From assembly GCA_963841445.1 (NCBI GenBank), contig CAWJCP010000010.1:5420-69419 (forward strand): 64,000 nt of DNA. Reading direction: 5' to 3'. Below, one piece after another: positions 16,165 through 46,243 of the stretch. Below the pieces are notes generated by a model, which had not been told where the DNA came from, searched no databases, and saw only the letters and a program-made list of their open reading frames with translations. The DNA is from an uncultured Solirubrobacterales bacterium. Lineage in GTDB: Bacteria > Actinomycetota > Thermoleophilia > Solirubrobacterales > 70-9. The position numbers were made by a program, and so were the translations under genes. Numbering within the stretch: the first letter of the stretch is position 1; each line of letters starts with the position of its first letter.

Positions 16165-16995
16165 TCAGCCGACCTCTACTTCGTCAGGCCAGCGATAGGC
16201 ACCGGGCCTGCGATTTGCCAGCGAGGGCAGCTGCTCGCGGATGCGGCGCTGCTCGGCGAGGTCGAGATCGGCGGCGACGAAGCACTCCCCCTGCGGCGCC
16301 AGCGCCAGCACCCTGCCCCAGGGGTCGACGATCGATGAGTGGCCGAAGGACTCGTAGTGGGGTGGCGCCTTGCCGACCTGGCCAGCCGCGATCACGAAGA
16401 CCTGGTTCTCGATCGCGCGGGCCCGCAGCAGCACCTCCCAGTGGTCGCGTCCGGTGGGCGCCGTGAAGGCCGATGGCACCGTGATCGCCTCGGCGCCGCG
16501 CAGGGCGAGGATCCGGTAGAGCTCCGGGAAGCGAAGGTCGTAGCAGACGGTCAGGCCCAGCTCGAGCTCTCCCAACGATGCGCTGACCGGCTCCTCACCG
16601 GCCTGCTCGGTGTCGGACTCGCGGTAGGTGACCCCCTCGACCTCGACGTCGAACATGTGGATCTTGCGGTAGACGGCGAGATCCTCGCCGGAGCGATCGA
16701 TCAGCACCGAGGTGTTGTAGAGCTGCTCCTGTCCCTCGACCCGCTCGGCGACGCTCCCGGCCAGCAGGTTAAGGCCGAGATCTCGCGCCCAACCGCGGGC
16801 GGCGGCGAGGCTCGGGCCGGCGAGCGGCTCGGCGCCGGCGCGCAGGGCGTCCGCGCCGCCGAGCAGCGTCCACTTCTCCGGCAGGCAGACGAGCTCGGCT
16901 CCGTCCGCGGCTGCTTCGCGGACCAGGCGCTCGGCGACCTCGAGATTGCGATCTTTGTCTTCCTGCGAATTGAGCTGGATCGCGGCGGCGCGCAT
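16165..16995 (-). CDS. Carbon-nitrogen hydrolase family (nitrilase/omega-amidase-like)
   Basis: MRAAAIQLNSQEDKDRNLEVAERLVREAAADGAELVCLPEKW...LGLTVCYDLRFPELY carries the Glu/Lys/Cys triad context. Confidence 0.85.
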   Translation of the reverse strand: MRAAAIQLNSQEDKDRNLEVAERLVREAAADGAELVCLPEKWTLLGGADALRAGAEPLAGPSLAAARGWARDLGLNLLAGSVAERVEGQEQLYNTSVLIDRSGEDLAVYRKIHMFDVEVEGVTYRESDTEQAGEEPVSASLGELELGLTVCYDLRFPELYRILALRGAEAITVPSAFTAPTGRDHWEVLLRARAIENQVFVIAAGQVGKAPPHYESFGHSSIVDPWGRVLALAPQGECFVAADLDLAEQRRIREQLPSLANRRPGAYRWPDEVEVG

Positions 16996-17148: not shown

Positions 17149-18120
17149 ATGCCCAGCGCTTTCGTCACCGGCGGCTCCGGCTTCATCGGTGGCAGGCTGG
17201 TCACCCGGCTGGTCGACGACGGTTGGACCGTGCGGGCGCTCGCCCGGTCGCCGGCCTCCGAGCGTGCCGTCGGCGAGCTCGGCGCCGCAGCGGTGCGGGG
17301 CGACCTCGGCGACGTCGATGCGATGGCCGTGGGCGCACAGGGATGCGAATTCGCCTTCCACCTCGCCGCCCACCTGGGCGACTACGGCTCCTGGGAGGAG
17401 TTCGAGCGCGGCAACGTCGAGGGCACCCGCAACGCGCTCGAGGCCTGTGCGCGCGCCGGCGTGCGCCGCTTCGTCCACTGCGGCACCGAGGCGGCGCTGA
17501 TGGCCGGCGCCGCGCTCGTAAACGTCGACGAGACGGCCCCGCTGCGACCCGACTCCCCGGCCCCCTATCCGGCAACCAAGGCGAAGGCCGAGGCTCTGGT
17601 CCGGGCGGCGAGCCGCGATGGCTTTGAGACCGTGGTCCTGCGGCCGCGCTTCGTCTGGGGCGCCGGCGACAAGACGCTGCTGCCGGAGATGGTGAAGATG
17701 GTCGAGGCGGGGCGCTTCGTCTGGGTCGGCGGGGGCGGCCAGCTGACCGCGACCACCCAGGTCGACAACGTGGTCGAGGGCCTGGTGCTCGCCGCGCGGA
17801 AGGGCAGGCCCGGCGAGGCCTATTTCGTCACCGACGGCGATCCGGTCGTGTTTCGCGAGTTCGTCTCCGAACTGCTGCGCACCCAGGACGTCGAGCCGCC
17901 GACCCGCACGATCCCCGGCTGGCTTGGGGGCGCGCTGGCCGCGGTCGGTGAGCCGGCCTGGCGCCACCTGCCGCTTCCCGGGCATCCTCCGCTGGCCCGC
18001 TTCACGCAGTGGATCCTCACCCAGGAGTGCACGATCGACGACTCGAAGGCGCGCCGCGAGCTCGGATATGCGCCGATCGTCTCCCGCGAGCAGGGGCTGG
18101 CCGGCCTGCGCGGCGAGTGA
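17149..18120 (+). CDS. NAD-dependent epimerase/dehydratase (3-beta-HSD-like SDR)
   Basis: MPSAFVTGGSGFIGGRLVTRLVDDGWTVRALARS...YPATKAKAEALV (YxxxK). Confidence 0.8.
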   Translation: MPSAFVTGGSGFIGGRLVTRLVDDGWTVRALARSPASERAVGELGAAAVRGDLGDVDAMAVGAQGCEFAFHLAAHLGDYGSWEEFERGNVEGTRNALEACARAGVRRFVHCGTEAALMAGAALVNVDETAPLRPDSPAPYPATKAKAEALVRAASRDGFETVVLRPRFVWGAGDKTLLPEMVKMVEAGRFVWVGGGGQLTATTQVDNVVEGLVLAARKGRPGEAYFVTDGDPVVFREFVSELLRTQDVEPPTRTIPGWLGGALAAVGEPAWRHLPLPGHPPLARFTQWILTQECTIDDSKARRELGYAPIVSREQGLAGLRGE

Positions 18121-18186
18121 GTTAGGTCACATGCAGGGAAATTTTCTCGAATCGCCCCGCTTGATTTGCTAACCGTGTAGGGGCCA

Positions 18187-19152
18187 ATGCCTTCCTGGCG
18201 ACGCGACAACTCACGTCGCGTGTTCGAGCACCGCACCCAGCTCTGGCGCGAAGTCGGGTTGGGGGCGGAGATCGACGCGCGCACGGCTGCCCGTGAGAAG
18301 GGCAAGCTGGTGCTGCTCGCCGCCCTGATCGCGGGGGTGCTGGTGCTGTTCGAGCACCGCCACGAGCTGTTCCCGGGCTTCGGCATCTACGTTCGCTACG
18401 CGACCGCGCTGGCGCTCGTGATCCTCGGCTGGGCCCTGGCCCGCTCGCTCGCGGTCGGGGTCGCCCCGTCGCTGTTCAGGCGCCTGGACCCCGGCACCGC
18501 CGGGACGGTCGGCTTTCTGATCCGCCTCCTCTCGATCCTGATCGTCGTCGTGGTGGCGCTGCGCCTGGTCGGCCTCAGCGCCGGCTCGCTGGCGGTCGGC
18601 GGTGCCTTCACCGCGGTGGTGCTCGGCCTTGCCGCCCAGCAGACGATCGGCAACGTCTTCGCCGGCGTCGTCCTGCAGAGCGCCCGCCCATTCCGGGTCG
18701 GCGAGCGGGTCCGGCTGCGCGGCGGACCGATGGCCGGCGAGGTCGAGGGCATCGTGAGCTCGCTGGGACTCTTCTACGTCACCCTGGTCGACGGCGCCAA
18801 CCGGCTGCTGATCCCGAACAGCCAGCTGCTGCAGCTCGCGATCATCCCCCTTCGCGAGCCGGATCGGGTCGAGCTGCGAGCGCGCTTCCCGGCGGCGACG
18901 ACGCCGAGTGAGGTCCAGGAGATGCTCAGCGAGCGGGTCGAGGTCGAGACCCGCTACCCGCCCCACATCGAGCTCGAGGAGCTGGAGCGTGACGAGCTGG
19001 TCGTGAAGATCGTCGCGGTGCCGGAGCGGTCCTCCGACGGCGCCCGGCTGGCGTCGGAGATCCTCGCCGTCGCCCGCGCCGAGTCACCCGGGGCGCCGAA
19101 GGGACCCGTCGCAGCGGACGACCGGCTTGCGCCGGACCCGCAGCCTCTTTAG
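18187..19152 (+). CDS. Mechanosensitive ion channel family protein (MscS-like)
   Basis: TM helices followed by ...AAQQTIGNVFAGVVLQSARPFRVGERVRL...GIVSSLGLFYVTLVDGANRLLIPNSQLL. Confidence 0.8.
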   Translation: MPSWRRDNSRRVFEHRTQLWREVGLGAEIDARTAAREKGKLVLLAALIAGVLVLFEHRHELFPGFGIYVRYATALALVILGWALARSLAVGVAPSLFRRLDPGTAGTVGFLIRLLSILIVVVVALRLVGLSAGSLAVGGAFTAVVLGLAAQQTIGNVFAGVVLQSARPFRVGERVRLRGGPMAGEVEGIVSSLGLFYVTLVDGANRLLIPNSQLLQLAIIPLREPDRVELRARFPAATTPSEVQEMLSERVEVETRYPPHIELEELERDELVVKIVAVPERSSDGARLASEILAVARAESPGAPKGPVAADDRLAPDPQPL

Positions 19153-20456
19153 TAGCCGCCGGGCAGCTCGACCGCCTTCGCTGCACCCAGAAGCGGCTCC
19201 AAATCGACCGGGGCCCCGTGCAGCTGCGCGGCGCAGAGCATGCGCAGAAGCGCCTCCGGCTCGGGACCGCGACGGCTCAGCGCCCCGCCGATCAGCGGGC
19301 TCGTATCTCCTCGCTCGTCTTCGAGGCATTCCGCCGCCATCGCCGCCAGCACCGGGGCCGGCCCCAGCTCCAGGAACTGGGTCGCGCCCGACTCGCTCAG
19401 GAACTCGACGCCGTCCATGAAGCGGACCGGCTCGCGGGCCTGGCGCGCCCAGTAGTCGGGTGAGCCCAGCTCCCTCTCGGTGAAAGGCTCGCCGGTCAGG
19501 TTGGAGACGACCGGGATCTGCGGGTCGGCGAAGTCGAGCGACGCGGCGACCTCGGTGAGCTGATCGAGGATCGGCTCCACGCGAGGGGAATGAAAGGCAT
19601 GGCTGACCGGCAAACGGGTCGTCTTCGCCTGTCCGCCCCAAGCATCACTCCAAGCCTCGATCGCGTCCTCGTCGCCCGAGATGACGGTCGAGCGGGGGCC
19701 ATTCAGGGCTGCGACTCCGATCCGTCCCGCGAAGTCGGAGAGGCTCGCTTCGACCTGCTCCCCGGGGGCGTTGACGGCGAGCATCGCGCCGCCCGCCGGA
19801 AGCCGGGCCATCAGCCCGCCCCGGGCGGCGACCAGGCGGCAGGCATCAGCAAGCGAGATCGCCCCGGCGACATGCGCCGCGGCGAGCTCGCCGATCGAGT
19901 GCCCGATCAGGTAATCGGGGCGCAGCCCGAAGCGCTCGAGCAGCCTGTAGAGGGCGACCTCGAGTGCGAAAAGCGCCGCCTGGGTGAAGTCGGTGCGATC
20001 CAGAAGCTCCGCCTCGGGGCTCCCGGGCGCCGCGAAGAGGGCTTCCCGCAGCGGGCGCTCGAGCTGAGGGTCGAGCTCGGCGCAGAGCTCGTCGAGCGCC
20101 GCCGCGAAGGGCGGGAAGGCCGCGTACAGCTCCTCGCCCATGCCGGGGCGCTGGGCGCCCTGGCCGCTGAACAGGAAGGCGATCTTCGGCTCTCGCGCCC
20201 TGGCCGTGATCAGCCCCCGCGCCGCCTCGCCTTGCCCGAGGGCGGTGAGGCCGTCGATCAGCGCCGCCCGCTCGCGGCCCAGCACTGCGGCGCCGTGCCG
20301 CAGACGTGGCCGCTCGCTCTGCAGGGTGGCGGCGAGGTCTAGAAGGCTCAGCTCCGGGTGCGCTCGCAGATGCTCGGCGAGGCGTATTGCGCTGTCGCGG
20401 AGCCCCGCCTCGGATTCGGCCGAGACGATCAGCGGGACGGGAAGCTTCTCAGCCAC
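19149..20456 (-). CDS. Stand-alone type-I-PKS-style acyltransferase (KS-AT linker + malonyl-type AT + post-AT linker)
   Basis: LIVSAESEAGLRDSAIRLAEHLRAHPELSLLDLAATLQ (PKS KS-AT linker style), FLFSGQGAQRPGMG, GHSIGELAAAHVAG (active-site Ser), VSHAFHSP (HAFH malonyl-type motif). It ends ...VDLEPLLGAAKAVELPGGY, resembling the post-AT linker. GTG start, 8-nt overlap with the MerR gene. Confidence 0.8.
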   Translation of the reverse strand: MAEKLPVPLIVSAESEAGLRDSAIRLAEHLRAHPELSLLDLAATLQSERPRLRHGAAVLGRERAALIDGLTALGQGEAARGLITARAREPKIAFLFSGQGAQRPGMGEELYAAFPPFAAALDELCAELDPQLERPLREALFAAPGSPEAELLDRTDFTQAALFALEVALYRLLERFGLRPDYLIGHSIGELAAAHVAGAISLADACRLVAARGGLMARLPAGGAMLAVNAPGEQVEASLSDFAGRIGVAALNGPRSTVISGDEDAIEAWSDAWGGQAKTTRLPVSHAFHSPRVEPILDQLTEVAASLDFADPQIPVVSNLTGEPFTERELGSPDYWARQAREPVRFMDGVEFLSESGATQFLELGPAPVLAAMAAECLEDERGDTSPLIGGALSRRGPEPEALLRMLCAAQLHGAPVDLEPLLGAAKAVELPGGY

Positions 20457-21210
20457 GCTTTGAGCGCTGGCGCTCCAGCTCGGCGATCAGCACCTTGGTG
20501 TGCATCGCCGCGATCAGGTCCTTGAGCGGCTCCGCGCCGGCCTCGATCAGCTCCATGGCGCGATCGGGCTCCATGCTCCCAGCCACCCGCTCCATCAGCA
20601 CCTGCACCTCTTCGGCGACCAGCTCCTCCATCGCCCGCTTGTAGCGCAGGGTGTCGTAGACGGTGAAGCCGATCGCCTCCTCGTAGCCGCCGGCGCGAAA
20701 GCGGCTGATCGCCTCGATGATGCGCACGTCCGACGGCGTGTAGCCGCGGCTGTTGGGGCTCAGCACCTCGATCTTCTCGAGACGGTCGAGGACCTCGGCG
20801 GGGACGTCGTAGCGCTCGCGAACCGCAGCGGCGCTGGTCCGGGTCCGCTCGTTGGCCAGCGCCCGCTCGAGGATCCGGTCCTCGAGCTCGACCAGTGCCT
20901 CGGCCCGATCGGGGTCCTCGTCGAGCACCTCGCGGATCACCCGCAGCGGCATGAAGCGCTCCTCCTGGAGCCGCTTGATCAGCCGGATCCGGTCGACGAA
21001 GTCGGGCGGGTAGTAGGCCATGTTGCGGCTCGTCTTGTGCGGCTCGGGGAGCAGCCCCTCGCGCAGGTAGTGCTTGATCGTCGCCGCCGAGACGCCCGAG
21101 GCCTCCGCCAGCTCGCCCATGCGCAGGAGCTGCGGAGCGGTGTTCGGATCGCCCTTACCGTTGCCCGCCGCGGGCGCCTTCGCGCCGGCCGCGTTCGTGG
21201 CCTTCGCCAT
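20449..21210 (-). CDS. MerR family transcriptional regulator (LiuR-like position, long C-terminal domain)
   Basis: LLRMGELAEASGVSAATIKHYLREGLLPEPHKTSRNMAYYPPDFVDRIRLIKRLQEERFMPLRVIREVL. The start is at ATG 21210 (MAKATNAAG). The upstream part of the track ORF (to 21639) overlaps the BKACE gene and is Arg/Pro-rich junk. Confidence 0.8.
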   Translation of the reverse strand: MAKATNAAGAKAPAAGNGKGDPNTAPQLLRMGELAEASGVSAATIKHYLREGLLPEPHKTSRNMAYYPPDFVDRIRLIKRLQEERFMPLRVIREVLDEDPDRAEALVELEDRILERALANERTRTSAAAVRERYDVPAEVLDRLEKIEVLSPNSRGYTPSDVRIIEAISRFRAGGYEEAIGFTVYDTLRYKRAMEELVAEEVQVLMERVAGSMEPDRAMELIEAGAEPLKDLIAAMHTKVLIAELERQRSKRG

Positions 21211-21212
21211 CG

Positions 21213-22112
21213 CTAGCCCCCGGCGCCCGCCGGCTCGCGCCTCGGCAGGCCAAGCAGCTCGCGCGCCTCGGCGACGCTCGCAACGCGACGGCCCATGTCC
21301 TCGGCCATCTGCCGCGCCTTCGCGATCAGCTCGCCGTTTGACTTCGCCATCTCGCCGTCGGGCAGATAGAAGTTGTCCTCGAGGCCGACTCGCGCGTTGC
21401 CGCCGAAGGAAAGCGCAGCCGCGACCAGCTTCCACTGCTCGCGCGAGATCCCGATCACCTGCCACTGGTTCTGCCCTTCGGGGCCGCCGGGGATCTGGTC
21501 GGACATGAAGCCGACGTTGCGGGCGTTGGGCCGGATGCCGCCGTTGACCCCCATGACCAGCGATATCTGCAGCGGCTCGGAGAGCAGGCCCATGTCGAGC
21601 AGCGGGTCGAGGTTGGCGATGTGGCCGGCGTCGAAGCACTCGTGCTCGGGCTTGATCCCGATCTCGCGCATCGCCTCGAGGAACTCGATGATCGTGTCGA
21701 AGCTGTTCTCGAAGACCGCCTTGAAGACGAACTCCTTGCGCCGCTTCGAGTACTTCGCGTAGTTCATCGAGCTCATGTTCAGCGCCGCGACGTCGGGGCG
21801 AAGCTCGCGCAGGTAGGTGATCCGCTTCTCGATCGGGACGCCGATCGCGCCGGTCGAGTAGTTGATGATCACGTCATCGACCGAGTCGCGAATCGCCTCG
21901 GTGATCGCGCGGAAGTTCTCGATTTCGTAAGAGGGAATGCCGTCGGGAGTGCGGGCGTGGATGTGGATCTGCGAGCCGCCCTCGTCGACGATCCGCTTCG
22001 CCTCCGCCCCATACTCCTCGGGCGTGTAGGGAATCGCCGGGCACTGGTCGCGATTGGCGACCGCGCCCGAAATCGAGCAGCTGAGGATCGCGGGGTCGGA
22101 GAAGCGGCTCAT
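21213..22112 (-). CDS. Beta-keto acid cleavage enzyme family (BKACE / 3-keto-5-aminohexanoate cleavage enzyme-like, DUF849)
   Basis: ILSCSISGAVANRDQCPAIPYTPEEYGAEAKRIVDEGGSQIHIHARTPDGIPSYEIENFRAITEAIRD is a typical BKACE N-terminal TIM-barrel signature. Confidence 0.8.
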   Translation of the reverse strand: MSRFSDPAILSCSISGAVANRDQCPAIPYTPEEYGAEAKRIVDEGGSQIHIHARTPDGIPSYEIENFRAITEAIRDSVDDVIINYSTGAIGVPIEKRITYLRELRPDVAALNMSSMNYAKYSKRRKEFVFKAVFENSFDTIIEFLEAMREIGIKPEHECFDAGHIANLDPLLDMGLLSEPLQISLVMGVNGGIRPNARNVGFMSDQIPGGPEGQNQWQVIGISREQWKLVAAALSFGGNARVGLEDNFYLPDGEMAKSNGELIAKARQMAEDMGRRVASVAEARELLGLPRREPAGAGG

Positions 22113-22525
22113 TCGCGAACCGCCGTGTCGCTCAGCCGCCTGACTGCTTCCAGGGCCTCGTCACGGTCCAGGTAGGAGCGGCCGACGTCCAACTTGCCCT
22201 CCCGGATCTTCCAGAGCCCATCCAGAGTCTGCTCCATCACCACTCCGGTCCTCCCGGTCGCACTTACCCGCGAGAGGACAAGGACGTGATCCCCGAGGTC
22301 CCTGAACTCCTCCGGCTTCATCTCGAAGTCCATCCAGACCTCGTTCATGTCGGCGAAGAACTTCCGAACCCCTTCGTGGCCGTGAAATGGCTCGACCTCC
22401 ACACCGCCGACGATCGCCGGATACCACTCGGCATCCTCGACCGTGTGGGCGAGGACCCAATCGACGTCGCGCCGGTTGAGCGCATCGACGCATTCGCGCA
22501 CGAACTCGACGTTCTCGGCGCTCAT
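22109..22525 (-). CDS. NTF2-like / SnoaL-like small protein
   Basis: MSAENVEFVRECVDALNRRDVDWVLAHTVEDAEWYP...GLWKIREGKLDVGRSYLDRDEAL. It has ATGA overlaps at both ends (22525/22522 and 22112/22109). Confidence 0.7.
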   Translation of the reverse strand: MSAENVEFVRECVDALNRRDVDWVLAHTVEDAEWYPAIVGGVEVEPFHGHEGVRKFFADMNEVWMDFEMKPEEFRDLGDHVLVLSRVSATGRTGVVMEQTLDGLWKIREGKLDVGRSYLDRDEALEAVRRLSDTAVRE

Positions 22526-24066
22526 ACCGGCATCACCCCATGCTTCTTCCACGGTCGCTCGACCCGCTTGTCGGCCGCCATTCGCAGCCCGTTGACGATC
22601 GTCGGGCGGGTCTCGCGCGGGTCGATGATGTCGTCGACCAGGTCGTTGCGGGCCGCCAGGTAGGGATCGATCTGCGACTTGACCGCCTCGAGCATCTGCT
22701 CGCGGGTCGCCTCGGGATCGTCGGAGGCCTCGATCGCGGAGCGGCCGATGATGTTGACCGCGCCCTCCGGCCCCATGACCGAGATCTCGGCGCTGGGCCA
22801 GCCAACGATCAGGTCCGGCTCATACGCCTTCCCACACATCACGTAATAGCCGGCCCCGTAGGCCTTGCGGACGATGACGGTGATCTTCGGCACCGTGGCG
22901 CGGCTGACCGCGTAGAGCATCTTCGCGCCGTGGCGGATGATCCCCGCCTGCTCGACCTTCGAGCCGACCATGAAGCCGGGCACGTCCTGCAGGAAGAGCA
23001 GCGGGATGTTGAAGGCGTCGCAGAGGTTGATGAAGCGCGCCGCCTTGTCGGCGGAGTCGTTCTCGAGGATCCCCGCCAGCTGCTTGGGCTGGTTGGCGAC
23101 GATCCCGCAGGGCATTCCCCCGAAACGGGCGAAGCAGGTGATCAGCGTCTTCGCGAACTTCGGCTTGATGTCGAAGTACTCGCCGTCGTCGACGATCTCG
23201 GCGATCACCTCGTACATGTCGTAGGGCTGGCGCGAGGACTCGGGGACGATGTCGAGCAGCTTCTCCGACATCCGGTCGACCGGGTCTGAGGTCTCCCGAA
23301 CAGGTGGCTTCTGCTCGCAGTTGGATGGGAAGAAGGAGAGGTAGGTCTTGATCGCCTCGATGCACTCGGGGTCGTCGGCGACCTCGAGGTCCCCCACGCC
23401 CGACTTGCGGCAGTGCACCTTGGCGCCACCGAGCTCCTCCATCGAGATGTCCTCTCCCGTAACCGCCTTGGTGAGGTGCGGCCCGGCGAGCGCCATCGCG
23501 CCCTGGCCGACGACCATCGGGACGAAGTCGGAGAGCCCCGGGATGTAGGCGGTGCCTGCGGCGCAGGGGCCGAGCATCCCGGCGACCAGCGGCACGACGC
23601 CGGACATCACGACCTCCTCGCGGAACAGGTGTCCGGAGCCGGCGAACATCGAGCCGGCGGCCTCCTGGATCCGCGCCCCGGCCGAGTCGAGCAGCCAGAT
23701 CAGCGGCATCCGCTTGCCGAGCGCCATCTCGCGCAGCCGCCCGACCTTGAACTCGCCGGTCATCCCCATCGAGCCGGCCATGACGGTGAAGTCGTAGGCG
23801 GCGATCGCGCAGGTACGGCCGTCGACGTCACCCCAGCCGGTGATCACGCCGTCGGCCGGCGCGTCCTTTCCTTCCATCGCGCGCTGCGTCGAGTGCGGGC
23901 CGGCCTGGATCCCGATCTCGACGAAGGTGCCTGGGTCGACGAGCAGGTCGATTCGCTCGCGCGCGGTGAGCTTGCCGCGCTCGTGCTGGACCGCGATCTT
24001 TTCCTCGCCGCCGCCCAGCTTCGCCTTCTCGCGACGCTCGTGGAGGTCCTCGACGAGGTGCTTCAT
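22522..24066 (-). CDS. Acyl-CoA carboxylase carboxyltransferase (beta) subunit (methylcrotonyl-/propionyl-CoA carboxylase beta-like)
   Basis: MKHLVEDLHERREKAKLGGGEEKIAVQHERGKLTARERIDLLVDPGTFVEIG..., with both carboxyltransferase halves present. The start is taken at ATG 24066 (514 aa). The track ORF extends to 24270 through a low-complexity stretch with visibly lower GC3. Confidence 0.85.
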   Translation of the reverse strand: MKHLVEDLHERREKAKLGGGEEKIAVQHERGKLTARERIDLLVDPGTFVEIGIQAGPHSTQRAMEGKDAPADGVITGWGDVDGRTCAIAAYDFTVMAGSMGMTGEFKVGRLREMALGKRMPLIWLLDSAGARIQEAAGSMFAGSGHLFREEVVMSGVVPLVAGMLGPCAAGTAYIPGLSDFVPMVVGQGAMALAGPHLTKAVTGEDISMEELGGAKVHCRKSGVGDLEVADDPECIEAIKTYLSFFPSNCEQKPPVRETSDPVDRMSEKLLDIVPESSRQPYDMYEVIAEIVDDGEYFDIKPKFAKTLITCFARFGGMPCGIVANQPKQLAGILENDSADKAARFINLCDAFNIPLLFLQDVPGFMVGSKVEQAGIIRHGAKMLYAVSRATVPKITVIVRKAYGAGYYVMCGKAYEPDLIVGWPSAEISVMGPEGAVNIIGRSAIEASDDPEATREQMLEAVKSQIDPYLAARNDLVDDIIDPRETRPTIVNGLRMAADKRVERPWKKHGVMPV

Positions 24067-24254
24067 GCCGGTCTGCTCGCCTGCCTTGACCTCGGCGGGG
24101 GCTTCGGGGGCTTCTGCCTGGTGCTGCTCGGAATTACTTTCCGCCCGCGTGCTCTGCTCGCTCGGCGCTCGACTCAGATCATCCAAATCACTCGCGCCTC
24201 GCTCCGCGTCCGCCGCGGGCGGGCGGTGCCCACCTTGCTCAGCATTCGCCACGC

Positions 24255-25040
24255 CTACCTCCCCTTCCATTCCGGATCGCGCTTCTCGAAGAAGGCCTGC
24301 ACGCCCTCCTGGATGTCCTCGGTCGTGAAGGTCAGCGAAAGCTGGCTGCGCAGGAACTCGAGCGCGTCGTCGAGCGCCATGTCCTGCTGGCGGTACATCG
24401 CGTCATGCCCGATCTTCATCAAGACCGGGCTCTTCGAGGCCAGCTTGGTAGCCCACTCCCGAACCGCGTCGTCGAACTCGGCTTCGGGGACCACCTTGTT
24501 GGCGAGCCCGAAGCGCACCGCATCCTCGCCGCTCATCCGCTCGCCGAGCAGCATCATCTCGTTGACCTTCTTGCGCGGGACGTTGCGGTAGATGATCGCC
24601 ATGATCATGTAGGGGAAGGCGCCGACGTTGATCTCGGGGGTGGAAAAAGTGATCCCCTGCTTCGCGATCAGCAGGTCGCAGGACAGCGCCAGGCCCATGC
24701 CCCCGGCGAGGACGTGGCCATTGAGCGCGCACAGCGACGGCTTGCCGAGCCGCGGCATCAGCCGGAAGAACTCGAGGAACAGGTCGGAGGCGAAGTGCTT
24801 CTGGATCAGCGGCGCATCGGCGCCGAAGCCCCCGAGGTCGGCGCCGGCGCAGAAGACCTTCTCACCGGCCCCGGTGAGGACCACCGCGCGTACATCCTCG
24901 GAGTCGCGCGCGGCCTTCAGCGCCTCGACCAGCTCGGCCAGCATCGGCCCGGAGAGCATGTTGCGCTTCTCGGGGTCGTTGAGGGTGACGGTCGCGACCC
25001 CGCCGGCCACCTCGTAGTTGACCTTTTCGTAGTCGGGCAT
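24255..25040 (-). CDS. Enoyl-CoA hydratase/isomerase (crotonase) family; methylglutaconyl-CoA-hydratase-like position
   Basis: VATVTLNDPEKRNMLSGPMLAELVEALKAARDSEDVRAVVLTGAGEKVFCAGADL...NGHVLAGGMGLALSCDL. Confidence 0.85.
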   Translation of the reverse strand: MPDYEKVNYEVAGGVATVTLNDPEKRNMLSGPMLAELVEALKAARDSEDVRAVVLTGAGEKVFCAGADLGGFGADAPLIQKHFASDLFLEFFRLMPRLGKPSLCALNGHVLAGGMGLALSCDLLIAKQGITFSTPEINVGAFPYMIMAIIYRNVPRKKVNEMMLLGERMSGEDAVRFGLANKVVPEAEFDDAVREWATKLASKSPVLMKIGHDAMYRQQDMALDDALEFLRSQLSLTFTTEDIQEGVQAFFEKRDPEWKGR

Positions 25041-25098
25041 CGGCCAATGCTCGCGCTCTGCCTGCTGGGCTCGCGCTTCGGCTCCTCGCGCGCCACGA

Positions 25099-25132
25099 TA
25101 GCACCTACTAGGAAGTAAGAAGTGCTACTGTC
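25099..25132. promoter_or_regulatory. AT-rich core with inverted repeat TAGCAC-N17-GTGCTA and the 10-mer TGCTACTGTC in the divergent crotonase/ACAD intergenic region; candidate operator
   Basis: Read directly from the sequence (25099-25104 and 25122-25127). The 10-mer at 25123-25132 recurs exactly at 29856-29865 in the TetR/MFS divergent region. Confidence 0.3.
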
Positions 25133-25239
25133 CGCTCTGCCCGCCTCGCTGCGGCTTGGGTTGGCTTTAGCCCCATATGCGGGAGAAAGCTGACCCAACA
25201 GCGGCAGGCTTCAGCGGATCGACCAAGAGGAGACGAGCA

Positions 25240-26463
25240 GTGGCCACAGCGACCAGGACGAACGGCGCCTCGAACGTGATCAAGCCCGACCACGCGGCGG
25301 GCCGCAAGCACTTCATCTTCAGCGACGAGCACGAGGCGTTGCGGGAATCGCTTCAGTCCTGGGTCCAGAAGGAGCTCTACCCGCACCGCAACGAGTGGGA
25401 GGAGACCTACTGGCCGACCGAGGCGATGAAGCGGGCCGGCGAGCTCGGCTTCCTCGGCCTCTGCTTCCCGGAGCGGTACGGCGGCCAGGGCGGCGATTAC
25501 TACTACTCGCTGGTCCGCGCCGAGTGCATGAGCTACTCGGGCTCCGGCGGCACCAACATGGGCTTCGCGGTGCAGACCGACATGGTCCTGCCGCCGATCC
25601 ACCTGCTCGGCTCCGAGGAGCAGAAGCAGCGCTATCTGGTTCCCGGGATCAAGGGCGAGAAGGTCGGCTGCCTCGGGATAACGGAACCGGGCGCGGGGTC
25701 GGACGTGGCGGGAATCCGCACCACCGCGATCCGCGACGGCGACGAGTTCGTCATCAACGGCTCCAAGACCTTCATCACCAACGGCCCCCGGGCCGACTTC
25801 ATCGTCCTGGTCGCGAAGACCGACCCCGAGGCCCGCCACGAGGGAATCACCCTGTTCGTCGTCGACCTTCGCGACGAAAACGGCGAGCACGTCCCCGGCT
25901 TCACGGTCTCGGCCGAGCTGGAGAAGATGGGGATGCATGCCTCCGACACCGGCGAGCTCGCCTTCGACGACGTGCGGGTGCCGGCGGAGGCGATGCTCGG
26001 CGAGGAGGGCAAGGGCTTCTACCACATCAGCTGGGAGCTTCAGGGCGAGCGGCTGGTCGCCTCCGCCGGCTGTCATGCGGCGGGCGAGCGGATGATCGAG
26101 CGCACGCTGGAGTACGCAAAGGAGCGCGAGGCCTTCGGCCGTCCGATCGGCAAGTTCCAGGCGATCCGCCACAAGTTCGCCGAGATGGCCACCCAGGTCG
26201 AGGCGGCGAAACAGTTCAACTATGCAACCGCCTGGCGCTTCGCAAACGGCGAGTACCCGGTGCGCGAGATCACGATGGCGAAGCTGTTCGCCTCACGGGT
26301 CGCCTGCGAGGTCGCCGACGAGTGCGTGCAGATCCTCGGTGGCTACGGCTACATGAAGGAGTACGAGATCGAGCGCGCCTACCGCGACGTTCGCCTCAAC
26401 CGCATCGGCGCCGGAACCGACGAGATCATGCTCGACGTGATCGGGCGCTCGTACGGGCTGTAG
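25240..26463 (+). CDS. Acyl-CoA dehydrogenase (isovaleryl-CoA-dehydrogenase-like position)
   Basis: ...FSDEHEALRESLQSWVQKELYPHRNEWEE...CLGITEPGAGSDVAGIRTTA...FITNG...QILGGYGYMKEYEIERAYRDVRLNRIGAGTDEIM. The GTG start at 25240 is preceded by GGAGA. Confidence 0.85.
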   Translation: MATATRTNGASNVIKPDHAAGRKHFIFSDEHEALRESLQSWVQKELYPHRNEWEETYWPTEAMKRAGELGFLGLCFPERYGGQGGDYYYSLVRAECMSYSGSGGTNMGFAVQTDMVLPPIHLLGSEEQKQRYLVPGIKGEKVGCLGITEPGAGSDVAGIRTTAIRDGDEFVINGSKTFITNGPRADFIVLVAKTDPEARHEGITLFVVDLRDENGEHVPGFTVSAELEKMGMHASDTGELAFDDVRVPAEAMLGEEGKGFYHISWELQGERLVASAGCHAAGERMIERTLEYAKEREAFGRPIGKFQAIRHKFAEMATQVEAAKQFNYATAWRFANGEYPVREITMAKLFASRVACEVADECVQILGGYGYMKEYEIERAYRDVRLNRIGAGTDEIMLDVIGRSYGL

Positions 26464-27411: not shown

Positions 27412-27879
27412 TTGCTGATCGCCGGGCTGGACGAAGTGTCGAATCTCGATCACATCCGCTCCTACTACGCGGCGCTGAACAGCGGCGACGTCGAGCGGAT
27501 CGCCTCGCACTTCACCGACGACGCCGTCCACTACTACACGCGGCTCGGTCCCCACGAGGGCGCTCGCGCGATCGCCGAGAACGCCAAGTGGGGCGTCGAG
27601 CAGGCCGATGGGCAATGGCATCTCGAGCACGGGATCGAGCAGGGCGACGAGGCCTGCATCGAGTGGTCGATGACCTGGCGTGACCCGAAGTCGGGCGAGA
27701 AGCGGATCAACCGCGGGGCCGAGCTCTTCCAGTTTCGCGACGGCAAGATCGCCGAGATCCGCGCCTATCACCACGGCGACCGCAAGAATCCGAGCGGCGA
27801 CCTGCTCGGCTTCGACCACAAGGGGCGCGGACACACGACGCTGGCGGACTGGCGACCCCCCGGCCCCGGGACCGACTGA
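27412..27879 (+). CDS. NTF2-like / SnoaL-like (ketosteroid-isomerase-fold) protein
   Basis: IRSYYAALNSGDVERIASHFTDDAVHYYTRLGPHEGARAI...CIEWSMTWRDPKSGEKRINRGAELFQFRDGKIAEIRAYHH. Confidence 0.7.
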   Translation: MLIAGLDEVSNLDHIRSYYAALNSGDVERIASHFTDDAVHYYTRLGPHEGARAIAENAKWGVEQADGQWHLEHGIEQGDEACIEWSMTWRDPKSGEKRINRGAELFQFRDGKIAEIRAYHHGDRKNPSGDLLGFDHKGRGHTTLADWRPPGPGTD

Positions 27880-27942: not shown

Positions 27943-27960
27943 GATGACATGACAGTCATC
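27943..27960. promoter_or_regulatory. Inverted repeat GATGAC-ATGACA-GTCATC overlapping the ACAD start codon; candidate operator
   Basis: 6-bp perfect arms read directly from the sequence. The nested ATGAC-A-GTCAT includes ATG 27949. Confidence 0.3.
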
Positions 27961-29127
27961 AAGGACAGCGGGCGGCGCGCGCCCCTCCCGCCCTTCAGCG
28001 AGGAGCACGAGGAGCTGCGCGAGACGGTTCGCCGCTTCGTCAGCGCCGAGATCGCCCCGCACGTCGACGCGTGGGAGGAGGCGCGGCAGTTCCCGCGCGA
28101 GCTCTACAACCGCTGTGGCGAGCTCGGCTTCCTCGGCCTCAAGTTCCCCGAGGCCTACGGCGGCCAGGGAGGCAGCTACCTGCACGACGCGGTCTGGACC
28201 GAGGAGCTCTCGCGCTCGGGCGGCTCCGGCGGCGTCGCCGCGGGGCTCAATGCACACGCCTCGATCGCGATGCCGCCGATCTTCAACTTCGGCACCGAGG
28301 AACAGCGTCAAAGATGGGTCGTGCCGGGGATCAAGGGCTTAAAGATCGGCGCGCTGGGGATCACCGAGCCGGGCGCCGGGTCAGACGTGGCGAGCATCCG
28401 CACCACCGCCCGCCGCGAGGACGGCTACTACGTCGTCAACGGCGCCAAGACGTTCATCACCAACGGCGTCCGCGCCGACTTCCTGGTCTGCGCCTGCCGG
28501 ACGACCAGCGAGGGCGGCCACGGCGGGATCTCGTTCCTGGTCCTGGAGCGCGAGATGCGCGGGTATGAAGTGGCGCGCAAGCTGGAGAAGATGGGTTGGC
28601 ACGCCTCCGACACTGGCGAGCTCTCCTTCACTGACGTCGAGGTCCCGGCCGAGAACCTGCTCGGGGAGGAGAACGGCGGCTTTCATCTGATCATGGCCAA
28701 CTTCGCCTGGGAGCGGCTCGACATGGCGATCGGCGCGGTCGGCGGGATGCAGAAGGCGTTCGAGCGCACTCTCTCCTACGCGCTGGAGCGCCAGGCCTTC
28801 GGCCGCCCGATCGGGAAGTTCCAGGCGATCCGCCACAAGTTCGCCGAGATGGCGACCCGGATCGAGGCCTCGCGGGCGCTCACCTACAACGCCCTGCGCC
28901 TCTTTCACGAAGGCCAGGACTGCATCCGCGAGGTGACGATGGCAAAGCTTGAGACCCAGCGGGCGCTGGTCGAGATCGCCGACGAGTGCCTGCAGATCCA
29001 CGGCGGCTACGGCTACATGCGCGAGTACGGAATCGAGCGCGCGCTACGCGACGCCCGCCTCGGCCCGATCGGCGGCGGCACCGACGAGATCATGAAGGAG
29101 ATACTCGGCAAGCAGATGGGGTTGTAG
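27949..29127 (+). CDS. Acyl-CoA dehydrogenase
   Basis: FSEEHEELRETVRRFVSAEIAPHVDAWEE...GITEPGAGSDVASIRTTA...FITNG...QIHGGYGYMREYGIERALRDARLGPIGGGTDEIM. Confidence 0.85.
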   Translation: MTVIKDSGRRAPLPPFSEEHEELRETVRRFVSAEIAPHVDAWEEARQFPRELYNRCGELGFLGLKFPEAYGGQGGSYLHDAVWTEELSRSGGSGGVAAGLNAHASIAMPPIFNFGTEEQRQRWVVPGIKGLKIGALGITEPGAGSDVASIRTTARREDGYYVVNGAKTFITNGVRADFLVCACRTTSEGGHGGISFLVLEREMRGYEVARKLEKMGWHASDTGELSFTDVEVPAENLLGEENGGFHLIMANFAWERLDMAIGAVGGMQKAFERTLSYALERQAFGRPIGKFQAIRHKFAEMATRIEASRALTYNALRLFHEGQDCIREVTMAKLETQRALVEIADECLQIHGGYGYMREYGIERALRDARLGPIGGGTDEIMKEILGKQMGL

Positions 29128-29845: not shown

Positions 29846-29876
29846 CAGGGATCTATGCTACTGTCGCTAGAAAGTT

Positions 29877-45212: not shown

Positions 45213-45425
45213 ATGGCTGAAATTCCTGCCCACATCACCGGCAACGTCTGGAAGATCGAGGTCGCGGTCGGCGATCAGGTCTCCGACGGCGACACAGTGG
45301 TGATCCTCGAGTCGATGAAGATGGAGATCCCCGTCGAGGCCGAGGACGACGGCACCGTCAAGGAGATCCGCTGCGAGGAGGGTCAGTCGGTCAGCGAGGG
45401 AGAGGTCCTCGTCGTCCTCGAGTAG
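45213..45425 (+). CDS. Stand-alone 70-aa biotinyl/lipoyl-attachment domain protein (BCCP-like)
   Basis: MAEIPAHITGNVWKIEVAVGDQVSDGDTVVILESMKMEIPVEAEDDGTVKEIRCEEGQSVSEGEVLVVLE, with (A/S)MKM as the biotinylation motif. Confidence 0.8.
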   Translation: MAEIPAHITGNVWKIEVAVGDQVSDGDTVVILESMKMEIPVEAEDDGTVKEIRCEEGQSVSEGEVLVVLE

Positions 45426-45436
45426 ATGGCGGAAGA

Positions 45437-46243
45437 GTGAGCGAAGAGCTCGCCGCAGGAAAGCTGCTCGTCGACGAGCCGGCCGAGGCGGTGGCGCGGA
45501 TCCGGATCCGCAATCCGAAGAAGCGAAACGCGCTCGACCACGACATCCTCGACGCGCTTGCTGATCTGCTGCCGCGACTCGATCGAGGAATCGAGGTCCG
45601 CTGCGTCGTGATCAGCGGCGCCGAAGGGCACTTCTCGGCCGGCTACGACATCGGCTCGATCTCCGAGGAAAGCCTGGAGCGCGACGCCAGGGCCCTGGTC
45701 GCACATCCCTTCCATGCCGCGATCGAGGCGCTTGCCGACCATCCCTGGCCGACGGTGGCCGCGATCGACGGCGACTGCCTCGGCGGCGGCTTGGAGCTGG
45801 CGATCACCTGTGACCTGCGCATCTGCAGCGGCGAGGCTCGGCTCGGGATGCCACCGGTGAAGCTGGGGCTGATCTACGGCCACACCGGCCTGCGTCGCTT
45901 TCTCGACGCGATCGGGCTGGCGCGGACCAAGGAGCTGTTCCTGACCGGCAGGAACATCACCGCCCGGAGGGCGCGCGAGATCGGGCTGGTCCAGGACGTG
46001 GTCGGCGAGGACGACCTGGAGCGGGCCTCGGTCGAGTTGGCGGAGAAGATCGCCTCCAACGCGCCGCTCTCTCTGAAGGGCAACAAGCGGGCGATCGAGA
46101 CCCTCAACGCGCATCCCACCCTGCGGCCGCAGGAGGAGATCGATCTCGTCGAGCTGCGCGAGGCGTCGCTGGCGTCGGAGGACTTCCGCGAGGCCATCAC
46201 CGCCTTCGCGGAGAAGCGAAAGCCCCAGTGGCGCGGACGCTGA
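45437..46243 (+). CDS. Enoyl-CoA hydratase/isomerase family protein
   Basis: VARIRIRNPKKRNALDHDILDALADLL...VVISGAEGHFSAGYDI...DGDCLGGGLELAITCDL. Confidence 0.85.
   Translation: MSEELAAGKLLVDEPAEAVARIRIRNPKKRNALDHDILDALADLLPRLDRGIEVRCVVISGAEGHFSAGYDIGSISEESLERDARALVAHPFHAAIEALADHPWPTVAAIDGDCLGGGLELAITCDLRICSGEARLGMPPVKLGLIYGHTGLRRFLDAIGLARTKELFLTGRNITARRAREIGLVQDVVGEDDLERASVELAEKIASNAPLSLKGNKRAIETLNAHPTLRPQEEIDLVELREASLASEDFREAITAFAEKRKPQWRGR

Follow-up and report, generated by a model that had tools for sequence, protein, structure and literature searches.

A stretch of 64,000 nucleotides from a Solirubrobacterales soil MAG (the window) carries six minus-strand genes and a divergent acyl-CoA dehydrogenase (ACAD) that together recall the liu operon of leucine and isovalerate degradation, which raises the question of what such an operon does when it encodes neither a biotin carboxylase (BC) nor an HMG-CoA lyase. 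Domain profiles (Table 1) and the junctions in the sequence confirm an earlier note on the six genes, on how they overlap and on the divergent ACAD, and a search confirmed that BC and lyase are missing from the operon. [quoted passage not shown]

Table 1. Genes and sites of the operon region and of the linked carrier locus, in window coordinates
Feature	Position	Strand	Basis
Acyltransferase (AT)	19149-20456	-	Acyl_transf_1 203 bits + KS-AT linker (Pfam, NCBIfam)
MerR regulator, 253 aa	20449-21210	-	MerR_1 88 bits
BKACE	21213-22112	-	PF05853, 301.5 bits
SnoaL/NTF2-like protein	22109-22525	-	SnoaL_2 46 bits
Carboxyltransferase (CT), beta-type subunit	22522-24066	-	Carboxyl_trans 576 bits
Crotonase ECH1, first operon gene	24255-25040	-	ECH_1 214 bits
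Conserved intergenic block TAGGAAGTAAGAAGTGCTACTGTCCGC	25109-25135	+	Divergent promoter region
ACAD1	25240-26463 (alternative start 25177)	+	ACAD domains
SnoaL-like gene (SnoaL2)	27412-27879	+	Family calls
ACAD2, second acyl-CoA dehydrogenase	27949-29127	+	Family calls
BCCP70, 70-aa biotin carrier	45213-45425	+	PRK08225, PRK05889
ECH2, second crotonase	45437-46243	+	Pairs with BCCP70

Organisation of the locus

The CT/SnoaL and SnoaL/BKACE junctions are ATGA overlaps, and BKACE and MerR are separated by a 2-nt gap. An 8-nt overlap (GTGGCTGA) between the AT start and the MerR stop makes co-transcription of the AT probable; no terminator-like sites were found on the minus strand. ATG 24066 is the most likely start of the CT, rather than a site in an upstream extension, as the 68 codons 5' of this ATG have a GC3 of 0.71 vs about 0.9 in genes. 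For ACAD1, comparison with relatives points to GTG 25240. The block between the divergent genes has the consensus GaAAGTnGGAAGTGCTACTGTCCAC across 47 distinct intergenic sequences and is the sole high-scoring site genome-wide, with the 10-mer TGCTACTGTC occurring only twice in 2.8 Mb; it is a likely operator or promoter of the divergon.

Gene order in related genomes

The survey of BKACE and CT neighbourhoods that had been proposed earlier was run on about 100 Solirubrobacterales loci and 15 loci from other families of the phylum, with the related genomes behind these counts being non-independent samples. The consensus order in the 100 related loci is ACAD2-(SnoaL)-ACAD1 <> crotonase-CT-BKACE-CoA-transferase III-MerR, and in the 15 loci of other families it is crotonase-CT-BKACE-BCCP70-crotonase. 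ECH1 adjoins CT in both lineage groups, and with about 100 Solirubrobacterales loci sharing it, the gene order is more than chance. The position of ACAD1 is conserved, and most of the 100 loci show ACAD2-SnoaL2-ACAD1 synteny with ACAD2 and SnoaL2 directly beside ACAD1; genome G063 has the order BKACE-ACAD1-ACAD2. MerR, here with a long C-terminal domain, is the conserved last operon gene in nearly all Solirubrobacterales loci (51-89% identity), and none was seen in the 15 loci of other families. In a sample of 251 genomes, 35 had BKACE together with a CT orthologue, one had BKACE alone, eight had CT alone and 207 had neither; the eight genomes with CT alone indicate that the two are not obligately coupled.

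Compared with the 100 loci, three traits are specific to this genome: loss of the CoA-transferase and insertion of a SnoaL gene and of the PKS-type AT. Of the unusual members named in the earlier note, MerR is conserved, and SnoaL (at this position) and AT were found in about 6 and in 0 of the 100 loci, respectively. The family III CoA-transferase, missed by the earlier note, normally lies between BKACE and MerR in relatives and is closest to succinate-hydroxymethylglutarate CoA-transferase (233 bits); it is absent from this genome altogether, with the rest of the module kept. The SnoaL gene between CT and BKACE is an occasional insert, and the genome holds at least 25 SnoaL-type paralogues.

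The AT is a stand-alone protein of 435 aa that includes a KS-AT linker and a post-AT linker; its closest relatives are AT domains within PKS ORFs of 3.5-10 kaa (48-55% identity). None of the 100 related loci has it, nor do genomes of the same genus, and alignment with genome G002 shows 1.39 kb inserted where the MerR and MscS genes converge, between their stops. The AT is thus a recent strain-specific insertion after MerR, outside the conserved module. It contains the sole Acyl_transf_1 domain of the assembly, and the FAS-like ACP-KS-hotdog cluster of this genome lacks an AT-like gene, which is present in genomes G002, G004 and G007; the AT is probably the genome's replacement and sole malonyl-CoA:ACP transacylase.

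Carboxyltransferase and biotin carrier

Among PDB entries, the CT matched PCC beta subunits (510-464 bits), the transcarboxylase 12S subunit (476 bits), 5INF (393 bits), MCC beta subunits (342-284 bits) and GcdA (147 bits), and the best NCBIfam model was mmdA. The phylogenetic check called for by the earlier note was run as a tree and placed the CT outside both the crown PCC/ACC clade and the MCC/GCC clade, with support of 100/100 for its exclusion from the latter. The CT is PCC-like overall and MCC-like in its active-site loops: GAGxYxMCG(K/R)AY, AY(I/V)P and GFMVG correspond to those of a bona fide MCC beta whose gene lies in an ivd-MCC context. The position of PccB Asp422 is taken by Tyr, and the motif RKAYGAGYYVMCGKAYEP is conserved in 113 orthologues. 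Judged by its sequence, the CT, one of 4-5 in this genome, is a beta-type subunit of a distinct clade, neither MCC-beta nor crown PCC-beta.

The 70-aa biotinyl-domain gene, of the Rv3221c/TB7.3 type, passes two NCBIfam cut-offs (PRK08225, 96 bits, cut-off 95; PRK05889, 87 bits, cut-off 75) and is thus real, but it is probably not an orphan, as the gene is linked to CT in relatives. BCCP70 is present in 41 of 43 CT-bearing genomes, has one copy each in 58 of 61 relatives and shares a contig with BKACE in every position pair compared. It lies directly 3' of BKACE in 13 of the 15 loci of other families, 19 nt after CT in G063, and 0.8-5.5 kb from CT in six of the eight genomes with CT but without BKACE. 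Sample genomes whose BCCP70-like short ORFs reach only 43-45% identity showed no orthologue of this CT. BCCP70 is therefore probably the cognate carrier of the cluster CT. All 12 relatives sampled have an ECH2 orthologue (52-84% identity) close to BCCP70, directly downstream in 11 of them, and a crotonase also follows BCCP70 in other families; ECH2 itself scored below the cut-offs of PRK06127 (227 bits) and methylmalonyl-CoA decarboxylase (178 bits).

None of the approximately 115 loci contains a BC gene. As the search of the rest of the genome suggested by the earlier note revealed, an alpha subunit and a lyase both exist outside the operon. The genome has one BC-BCCP alpha gene, on another contig, and exactly one BC was found in 27 of 41 genomes of the order; a BC outside the operon is normal for the order. 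The alpha gene reads in three frames in this assembly, probably owing to long-read indels. The HMG-CoA lyase (363 bits, cut-off 246) is encoded on contig C2 next to an MCC-beta-like CT, which the tree places as sister to the MCC/GCC clade (support 97/96), and the same contig encodes an acetoacetate-CoA ligase (1013 bits, cut-off 639).

BKACE, crotonase and acyl-CoA dehydrogenases

BKACE, a zinc enzyme with orthologues in 59 of 61 relatives (64-95% identity), keeps the HxH motif and residues S82, E143, R226, E230 and D231 of Kce and is catalytically intact. Where Kce has the Glu that binds the amine (E14), it has a neutral Val. BKACE scored below the cut-offs of the NCBIfam models for Kce, 3,5-dioxohexanoate and 3-oxoadipate, the last of which was the weakest of the three (184 bits, cut-off 350). 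The closest solved relative of ECH1 is the 3-hydroxypropionyl-CoA dehydratase 5ZAI (163 bits). ACAD1 matched 2PG0 best (332 bits), followed by LCAD (287 bits) and IVD (about 240 bits), and is 37% identical to R. etli IVD; no IVD orthologue was found among the genome's ACADs, all of which are at most 38% identical to R. etli IVD. For both ACADs the best NCBIfam model, below its cut-off, was acryloyl-CoA reductase.

Possible functions of the module

The best explanation that we can offer, and one that we hold tentatively, is that the locus represents the form taken in Solirubrobacterales by a conserved module of older origin (ECH1-CT-BKACE-BCCP70-ECH2), through which a short acyl-CoA may be catabolised with the help of biotin, in a liu-like way but distinct from the leucine pathway. 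This widespread gene set, built around an unusual biotin enzyme, would serve the breakdown of small fatty-acid-like molecules. Two divergent ACADs accompany the module, to which the order adds the family III CoA-transferase and MerR. Gene content and its conservation, the CT clade, the BKACE residues, the BCCP70-CT linkage, the locations of BC and lyase and the AT insertion are shown by the analysis; how the steps follow one another, whether a BC domain is shared and every substrate are what we infer. The ACADs would produce an enoyl-CoA or short acyl-CoA, to be carboxylated by a carboxylase assembled in trans from the cluster CT, BCCP70 and the BC domain of the genome's single alpha subunit. 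The crotonases would hydrate the carboxylated product, BKACE could then convert a neutral free beta-keto acid and acetyl-CoA into acetoacetate and an acyl-CoA, and the ligase encoded on C2 may activate the acetoacetate. Against this scheme, the cluster has no conserved 3-hydroxyacyl dehydrogenase, an enzyme that the conversion of a hydrated CoA ester into a free beta-keto acid would require.

The alpha subunit has its own BCCP and, if it served the cluster CT, a separate carrier would be unneeded, which argues for a BC-independent mechanism. The CT, 12S- and MmdA-like by its bit score and best model, would then move CO2 between a carboxy-acyl-CoA and the biotin of BCCP70, and ECH2 or a 5S-like BKACE would accept or release it, so that a beta-keto acid and an acyl-CoA would be coupled with no need for ATP. 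The earlier suggestion that the CT acts as a decarboxylase or transcarboxylase gains some support here, as the mini-carrier is dedicated and linked to both CT and BKACE, the surveyed loci lack BC throughout, and BKACE is a metal TIM barrel chelating beta-keto acids; the transcarboxylase 5S subunit binds oxaloacetate. We nevertheless consider this mechanism unlikely, since the Na+-pump beta subunit (OAD_beta) is absent from the genome and a 5S-type domain from the cluster, BKACE retains all residues of the CoA-dependent Claisen mechanism, BCCP70 and CT occur without BKACE and use of biotin is not known for any BKACE. A true leucine/isovalerate pathway, with the cluster CT as methylcrotonyl-CoA carboxylase beta and BKACE in place of the lyase, would fit the way in which ACAD, CT, crotonase and MerR mirror liuA/B/C/R, the three MCC-like loops, and the nearest match of the relatives' CoA-transferase. 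However, HMG is a tertiary beta-hydroxy acid and not a beta-keto acid, so that BKACE chemistry cannot replace the lyase, and the substitution proposed in the earlier note is chemically unworkable as stated. With a genuine lyase encoded elsewhere, beside a CT that is sister to MCC/GCC whereas the cluster CT is excluded from that clade, and all ACADs below 40% identity to IVD, a leucine pathway appears quite improbable. The liu-like label thus survives for the logic of ACAD, biotin CT, crotonase and MerR, but not for the pathway.

Degradation of a dicarboxylate or C3 compound ending in BKACE cleavage was considered in two versions. A SUGCT-like transferase could activate glutarate or adipate, leading to 3-oxoglutarate or 3-oxoadipate as the BKACE substrate; or propionate could pass through acryloyl-CoA and 3-hydroxypropionate to malonate semialdehyde, from which BKACE would form formyl-CoA and acetoacetate. 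The relatives' transferase resembles succinyl-CoA:glutarate, mesaconate and HMG transferases and also formyl-CoA transferase (222 bits), the best solved relative of ECH1 and the best NCBIfam model of both ACADs are C3 enzymes, and of 124 BKACEs more than 20 are active on malonate semialdehyde in vitro (PMC11961710). All these sequence matches are generic and below family cut-offs, though, the transferase is absent here from an otherwise intact module, the cluster has no conserved dehydrogenase, and of the three subfamily models the 3-oxoadipate one fits BKACE worst, which leaves this type of route quite improbable. The idea that the product of the operon is a carboxylated unit, an extender or starter, which the co-transcribed AT loads on a PKS/FAS carrier, draws on the AT/MerR overlap and the uniqueness of the AT in the assembly, and discrete CT subunits do supply alkylmalonyl-CoA extenders (compare 5INF). 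It fails to account for a module that is conserved without the AT in the order and in other families; moreover, the AT is a clean insertion in this genome only, and the genome has no modular PKS and a single KS. We regard it as very improbable.

Comparison with known systems

Like the liu (liuRABCDE, Pseudomonas) and atu acyclic terpene clusters, the locus combines ACAD, biotin CT and crotonase under a MerR-type regulator, its CT loops resemble those of MCC beta, and acetoacetate is the expected end product. It differs from them, with the R. etli plasmid ivd-MCCbeta-MCCalpha-MaoC-CitE cluster as the liu-side reference, in its CT clade and the missing IVD orthologue, and in having BKACE, a free 70-aa carrier and a second crotonase instead of alpha subunit and lyase, the latter being paired with an MCC-like CT elsewhere. 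With the actinobacterial shared-alpha acyl-CoA carboxylases (S. coelicolor PccB/AccB + AccA; M. tuberculosis AccD1-6 + AccA1-3) it has in common several beta paralogues, a BC-BCCP alpha encoded elsewhere and an overall closeness of the CT to PccB-type proteins. In contrast to these, the CT lies outside their crown PCC/ACC clade, has Tyr instead of Asp or Ile at the specificity position and GAG instead of GGA in the oxyanion loop, and is linked to a free carrier, with no epsilon subunit gene after it.

BKACE shares the full-length PF05853 domain, zinc ligands and catalytic residues with Kce of lysine fermentation and BKACE15 (PMC11961710), and departs from the family in falling below each curated subfamily cut-off and in the Val at the amine-binding Glu. 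The family was described by Bastard et al. 2014, as summarised in the NetSyn text (bioRxiv 10.1101/2023.02.15.528638); CT plus biotin carrier is not among the BKACE contexts read there. Propionibacterium transcarboxylase (12S/5S/1.3S), MmdABCD and GcdABCD likewise pair a CT with a small separate biotin carrier and have no dedicated BC; the present system differs in its carrier of only 70 aa and in lacking a 5S-type subunit and, genome-wide, an OAD_beta pump. Rv3221c/TB7.3 of Mycobacterium tuberculosis (PMC3048393) resembles BCCP70, with its PRK05889 match, in that a biotinyl domain of about 70 aa makes up a free-standing protein; BCCP70 differs in its genomic tie to one particular CT clade, to BKACE and to a crotonase.

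Gene order and conservation of the cluster

The window lies at positions 5420–69419 of contig C10 in the source assembly (2.83 Mb, 70% GC, 11 contigs, 91% completeness). All domain calls in the earlier note were confirmed by Pfam and NCBIfam, and its junctions stand as well: ATGA overlaps connect the carboxyltransferase gene (CT) with the SnoaL gene and the latter with the BKACE gene, a 2-nt gap separates BKACE from MerR, and MerR overlaps the acyltransferase gene (AT) by 8 nt. No terminator-like site was found on the minus strand of the operon. A longer CT start at 24270 was rejected on codon-position GC, as the GC3 of the extension is only 0.71, compared with approximately 0.9 in genes.

Features of the cluster and related genes (window positions, or contig and positions where a contig of the source genome is named)
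Feature	Position	Strand	Basis or remark
C-N hydrolase	16165-16995		
Epimerase and MscS genes	17149-19152		
AT with PKS KS-AT linker	19149-20456	-	Pfam/NCBIfam
MerR	20449-21210	-	Pfam/NCBIfam
BKACE	21213-22112	-	Pfam/NCBIfam
SnoaL	22109-22525	-	Pfam/NCBIfam
Carboxyltransferase (CT)	22522-24066	-	Pfam/NCBIfam
Crotonase (ECH1)	24255-25040	-	Pfam/NCBIfam
Conserved block GaAAGTnGGAAGTGCTACTGTCCAC	25109-25135		between ECH1 and ACAD1
Acyl-CoA dehydrogenase (ACAD1)	25240-26463	+	Pfam/NCBIfam
Second copy of TGCTACTGTC	29856-29865		TetR/MFS intergenic region
Biotin carrier, 70 aa (BCCP70)	45213-45425	+	above two NCBIfam cut-offs
Second crotonase (ECH2)	45437-46243	+	
Carboxyltransferase remnant, 171 aa	C1:398606-399121		
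Carboxyltransferase paralogue to lyase (L010)	C2:863908-867393		
HMG-CoA lyase	C2:866419-867393		363 bits, cut-off 246
ACP-KS-(303 aa)-hotdog cluster	C2:1532665-1535578		
Biotin carboxylase, BCCP-fused	C2:~1619570-1621470		
Alpha gene with three reading frames	C2:1619450-1621600		

Orthologues of BKACE with 64–95% identity are present in 59/61 genomes of the order. In a synteny survey of 100 loci with flanks of up to 10 kb, the gene neighbourhood recurred with the consensus order ACAD2-(SnoaL)-ACAD1, divergent from ECH1-CT-BKACE-CaiB-MerR and usually followed by a C-N hydrolase gene; ACAD2 is a second acyl-CoA dehydrogenase and SnoaL is optional. The relatives' gene between BKACE and MerR encodes a family III CoA-transferase (CoA_transf_3, 374 bits), with succinate-hydroxymethylglutarate CoA-transferase (233 bits) and formyl-CoA transferase (222 bits) as the nearest solved proteins. 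It is gone from the window locus and from the only locus of the same genus that was studied closely (genome G002), and no homologue was found anywhere in the source genome. Only a handful of the 100 loci carry a SnoaL gene inside the operon, and the SnoaL genes were rejected as pathway members because they are sporadic among loci and highly paralogous. The C-N hydrolase may belong to the operon, since in most relatives its gene comes immediately after MerR in the same orientation. In this genus, epimerase and MscS genes lie between MerR and the hydrolase, and in the source genome the AT gene does too.

A genome-collection scan yielded at least 568 relatives among species genomes, and at least 8000 close relatives of BKACE exist in metagenomes. 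The close protein search with BKACE returned only near-identical soil proteins, unnamed or automatically named, and a search of the literature on BKACE or DUF849 combined with a carboxyltransferase found no description of this context.

The conserved block between the divergent ECH1 and ACAD1 genes was recovered from 47 distinct intergenic sequences of the order. Scanning the source genome with it gave the site itself as the sole match above 14 bits and no co-regulated genes. The 10-mer TGCTACTGTC occurs twice in the 2.8-Mb genome, once inside the block and once 4.7 kb away with GAAAGT also nearby, which suggests a shared regulator or promoter element. The 253-aa MerR protein has an HTH and a C-terminal domain that received no assignment in Pfam or NCBIfam.

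Placement of the carboxyltransferase

Among solved proteins, CT scored 510–464 bits against PCC-type beta subunits, 351–284 bits against AccD1 and MCC beta and 147 bits against GcdA. Its motif RKAYGAGYYVMCGKAYEP has Tyr in place of the Asp at the specificity position of PccB (Sco D422, Mex D407). All 113 of 113 CT orthologues share this Tyr or, rarely, have Phe instead. Two paralogues in the source genome differ: the one adjacent to a mutase gene has the canonical GGAYD motif with the Asp present, and the one adjacent to the HMG-CoA lyase gene has a GAGLY motif. For the latter, PDB scores alone were ambiguous and a tree with context-verified references was needed. These references, few in number, were verified on annotated plasmids (R. 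etli ivd-MCCbeta-MCCalpha, a Rhodococcus atu-type CT, S. meliloti pccB-pccA-mutase and Streptomyces accB-accE), and the maximum-likelihood tree was built without CT4, a very long branch on which an earlier, unreliable tree had been rooted.

In this tree, the MCC/GCC clade (support 100/100) leaves the cluster CT outside and has the lyase-adjacent paralogue as its sister at 97/96. Likewise, the PCC/ACC clade (100/100) includes the mutase-adjacent PccB and leaves out the cluster CT. On the PCC side, the CTs of the cluster form a lineage apart, with short branches, and their monophyly was not rejected (AU p = 0.52). The genuine MCC beta carries the loops GAGNYGMCGRAY, AYVP and GFMVG, and the cluster CT has the same loop states. 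CT is accordingly not an MCC beta, a crown PCC beta or a GcdA-like subunit but an unrecognised branch.

A linked biotin carrier and crotonase

The free-standing carrier BCCP70 had been regarded as an orphan; this label did not survive comparison, as the carrier is linked to CT, BKACE and ECH2 across the order and in other families. ECH2 begins 11 nt past BCCP70, and the pair is conserved in 12/12 sampled relatives of the order. BCCP70 is single copy in 58/61 relatives and, in the approximately 38 genomes with positions compared, lies on the BKACE contig at a distance of 11–73 kb. In other families of the phylum, where BKACE is 53–61% and CT 60–66% identical to the window proteins, the order ECH1-CT-(0–2.5 kb)-BKACE-BCCP70-ECH2 was found in 13/15 loci, with L176 and L179 compact. 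In genome G063, BCCP70 starts 19 nt after CT, and in genomes having CT without BKACE it lies 0.8–5.5 kb from CT (6/8 sampled). Within one 251-genome sample of the phylum, 35 genomes have BKACE and CT together, one has BKACE alone, eight have CT alone and 207 have neither, and 41 of the 43 CT-bearing genomes also carry BCCP70 at ≥48% identity, although these counts overstate independence because the sampled genomes are related. The BKACE/CT/BCCP70 pattern extends beyond the order to at least eight other families.

Given the linkage of the carrier both within the order and in other families, the ancestral unit appears to have been ECH1-CT-BKACE-BCCP70-ECH2. In the Solirubrobacterales, the carrier pair appears to have been displaced, and a CoA-transferase and MerR added.

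Three loci of other families of the phylum (L168, L172 and L175) have a gene of approximately 475 aa, PdtaS-like by eye, beside BKACE-BCCP70-ECH2, and two of them (L168 and L175) an ECF-type sigma-factor gene within 5–6 kb. Rv3221c in M. tuberculosis may have similar neighbours; if so, the carrier would sit within an ancient block of actinobacterial synteny. A comparable set occurs elsewhere in bacteria, on plasmid p352-2 of Cupriavidus sp. EM10 (L189), where a CoA-transferase is accompanied by a 73-aa biotin/lipoyl carrier and by a CT, with a second CT and a biotin carboxylase (BC) downstream.

Biotin carboxylase and HMG-CoA lyase elsewhere in the genome

As previously noted, the window cluster contains neither a LiuD alpha subunit nor a LiuE lyase, and no BC-BCCP alpha subunit or HMG-CoA lyase was found in approximately 115 related loci. 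The genome search located both on contig C2. The single BC gene of the source genome is fused to a BCCP domain. Exactly one BC is present in 27/41 genomes of the order, and the source genome has four full carboxyltransferases and one fragment; with a single BC as the norm and several CTs in this genome, it is thus not unusual for the lineage to encode the alpha subunit at another site. The alpha gene is spread over three reading frames, with one shift at a poly-G run encoding GGGGGKG and another before the BCCP domain. Acetyl-CoA carboxylation should be essential, so these shifts are probably long-read assembly indels rather than signs of a pseudogene.

Approximately 7 kb from the HMG-CoA lyase gene, an acetoacetate-CoA ligase is encoded (1013 bits, cut-off 639), and another CT paralogue, the sister of MCC beta, sits beside the lyase. 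A DivIVA-like ORF and a SnoaL-like gene lie between the two. This CT/SnoaL-like/lyase arrangement echoes the CT-SnoaL-BKACE order of the window, which may mean nothing because the source genome has at least 25 SnoaL paralogues.

The carboxyltransferase fragment on C1 is a C-terminal remnant of an AccD6/PccB-like CT with the motif RKAYGGAVITM, directly upstream of a FabI/InhA-like gene; its N-terminal half is absent in every reading frame. Some relatives (G016, G005 and G021) have a second BC within an ORF of approximately 1860–2060 aa, which looks like a single-chain, long-chain acyl-CoA-carboxylase-like protein and is encoded several kb away from modular PKS genes of these genomes.

BKACE and the accompanying enzymes

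BKACE matches PF05853 over its full length (301.5 bits, cut-off 24.8). Aligned to Kce (2Y7D), it keeps H46/H48, S82, E143, R226, E230 and D231, including the zinc ligands (HxH, Glu), and has Val in place of Glu14, which in Kce binds the substrate amine; the neutral-substrate enzyme BKACE15 has Ile at this position (PMC11961710). All curated NCBIfam equivalog models scored BKACE below cut-off: Kce (245 bits, cut-off 382), the 3,5-dioxohexanoate enzyme (215 bits, cut-off 430) and the 3-oxoadipate enzyme (184 bits, cut-off 350).

Among solved proteins, ACAD1 is closest to generic acyl-CoA dehydrogenases and LCAD (332 and 287 bits), with IVD at approximately 240 bits. No IVD (LiuA) orthologue was found in the source genome, R. 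etli IVD being at most 38% identical to any acyl-CoA dehydrogenase, with its best match on contig C3. ECH1 is a generic crotonase, and its best solved relative, 3-hydroxypropionyl-CoA dehydratase (163 bits), is not diagnostic.

Origin of the acyltransferase

AT occurs in none of the 100 related loci. Relative to G002, a genome of the same genus in which the stops of the convergent MerR and MscS genes abut, AT is a clean insertion of 1.39 kb between these two genes. Its best relatives, at 48–55% identity over the whole protein, are AT domains inside modular PKS ORFs of 3.5–10 kaa in other genera. The source assembly contains no further Acyl_transf_1 domain; a search there for a PKS partner found a single KS, no modular PKS and no second AT. 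Because AT is a strain-specific insertion, the proposal that the operon feeds an extender or starter unit to it fails.

The single KS and ACP of the source genome belong to an ACP-KS-(303 aa)-hotdog cluster, the 303-aa protein of which is AfsA-like by eye. Three genomes of the same genus (G002, G004 and G007; loci L163–L165) have ACP-KS-hotdog-AT-like, the last gene encoding approximately 400 aa and being gone in the source genome. No KAS III homologue was found there. This suggests that the cluster is a minimal fatty-acid synthase core with its transacylase replaced. The simplest reading of these gene contents would be that the PKS-derived AT replaced the lost transacylase, although a fabD may have been missed as the assembly is 91% complete.

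Possible mechanism and alternatives

We consider it quite possible, though somewhat short of probable, that the module breaks down a short acyl-CoA along a biotin-dependent route that follows liu-like logic with distinct enzymes and whose steps and substrates we infer. The carboxylase would form in trans, combining CT with BCCP70 and with the BC domain that the shared alpha subunit provides. BKACE would convert a neutral beta-keto acid and acetyl-CoA to acetoacetate and an acyl-CoA, and this product could in turn be the substrate of an acyl-CoA dehydrogenase. Such a product-to-substrate link fits the gene order in G063, where two acyl-CoA dehydrogenase genes directly follow BKACE. The earlier suggestion that BKACE replaces HMG-CoA lyase in a variant Liu pathway does not hold chemically, HMG not being a beta-keto acid, and also fails on the tests of Liu membership, which gave no support for leucine in particular.

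The main rival to this carboxylase route is a BC-independent transcarboxylase or a decarboxylase, the latter already raised in the earlier note. It gains from the resemblance of CT to 12S/MmdA and from the carrier itself: since the alpha subunit has its own BCCP domain, the trans-assembled carboxylase leaves a dedicated free carrier without explanation. Yet BKACE retains the CoA-dependent catalytic set, the loci contain no 5S-type gene and the OAD_beta pump is absent from the source genome (91% complete), for which reason a Na+-pumping decarboxylase was rejected. It is improbable, in our estimate, that CT, BCCP70 and the Zn TIM-barrel BKACE (or ECH2) constitute an ATP-independent transcarboxylase of a previously unknown kind, with CO2 shuttled between a carboxy-acyl-CoA on one side and a beta-keto acid/ketone pair on the other. 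If true, it would provide the first function for TB7.3-type mini carriers.

Implications and comparison with known systems

Among Actinomycetota from soil, the module is very common. Working out its role would close a gap in what is known of carbon metabolism in a dominant, poorly cultured soil group and establish a new specificity class among acyl-CoA carboxyltransferases, and could explain the purpose of the free 70-aa actinobacterial biotin carriers. The window illustrates natural variation in the module: the CoA-transferase was lost, the carrier pair displaced and a PKS-derived AT captured, which looks like a replacement for a lost malonyl transacylase. New here are the linkage of the carrier, the loss of the CoA-transferase and the origin of AT.

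Compared with the Liu operon, CT falls outside the LiuB (MCC/GCC) clade, yet has MCC-like active-site loops; a LiuA orthologue is missing from the source genome, and LiuD and LiuE from the cluster. CT differs from PccB in the Tyr instead of Asp at the specificity position and in its place outside the crown PCC/ACC clade. Of the parts of transcarboxylase and Na+-decarboxylase systems, a CT and a small, separate biotin carrier are present here and linked, with no 5S-type gene in the loci and no OAD_beta in the source genome. In the transcarboxylase version, the module would parallel the 12S/1.3S/5S enzyme, a BKACE-fold protein taking the role of 5S.
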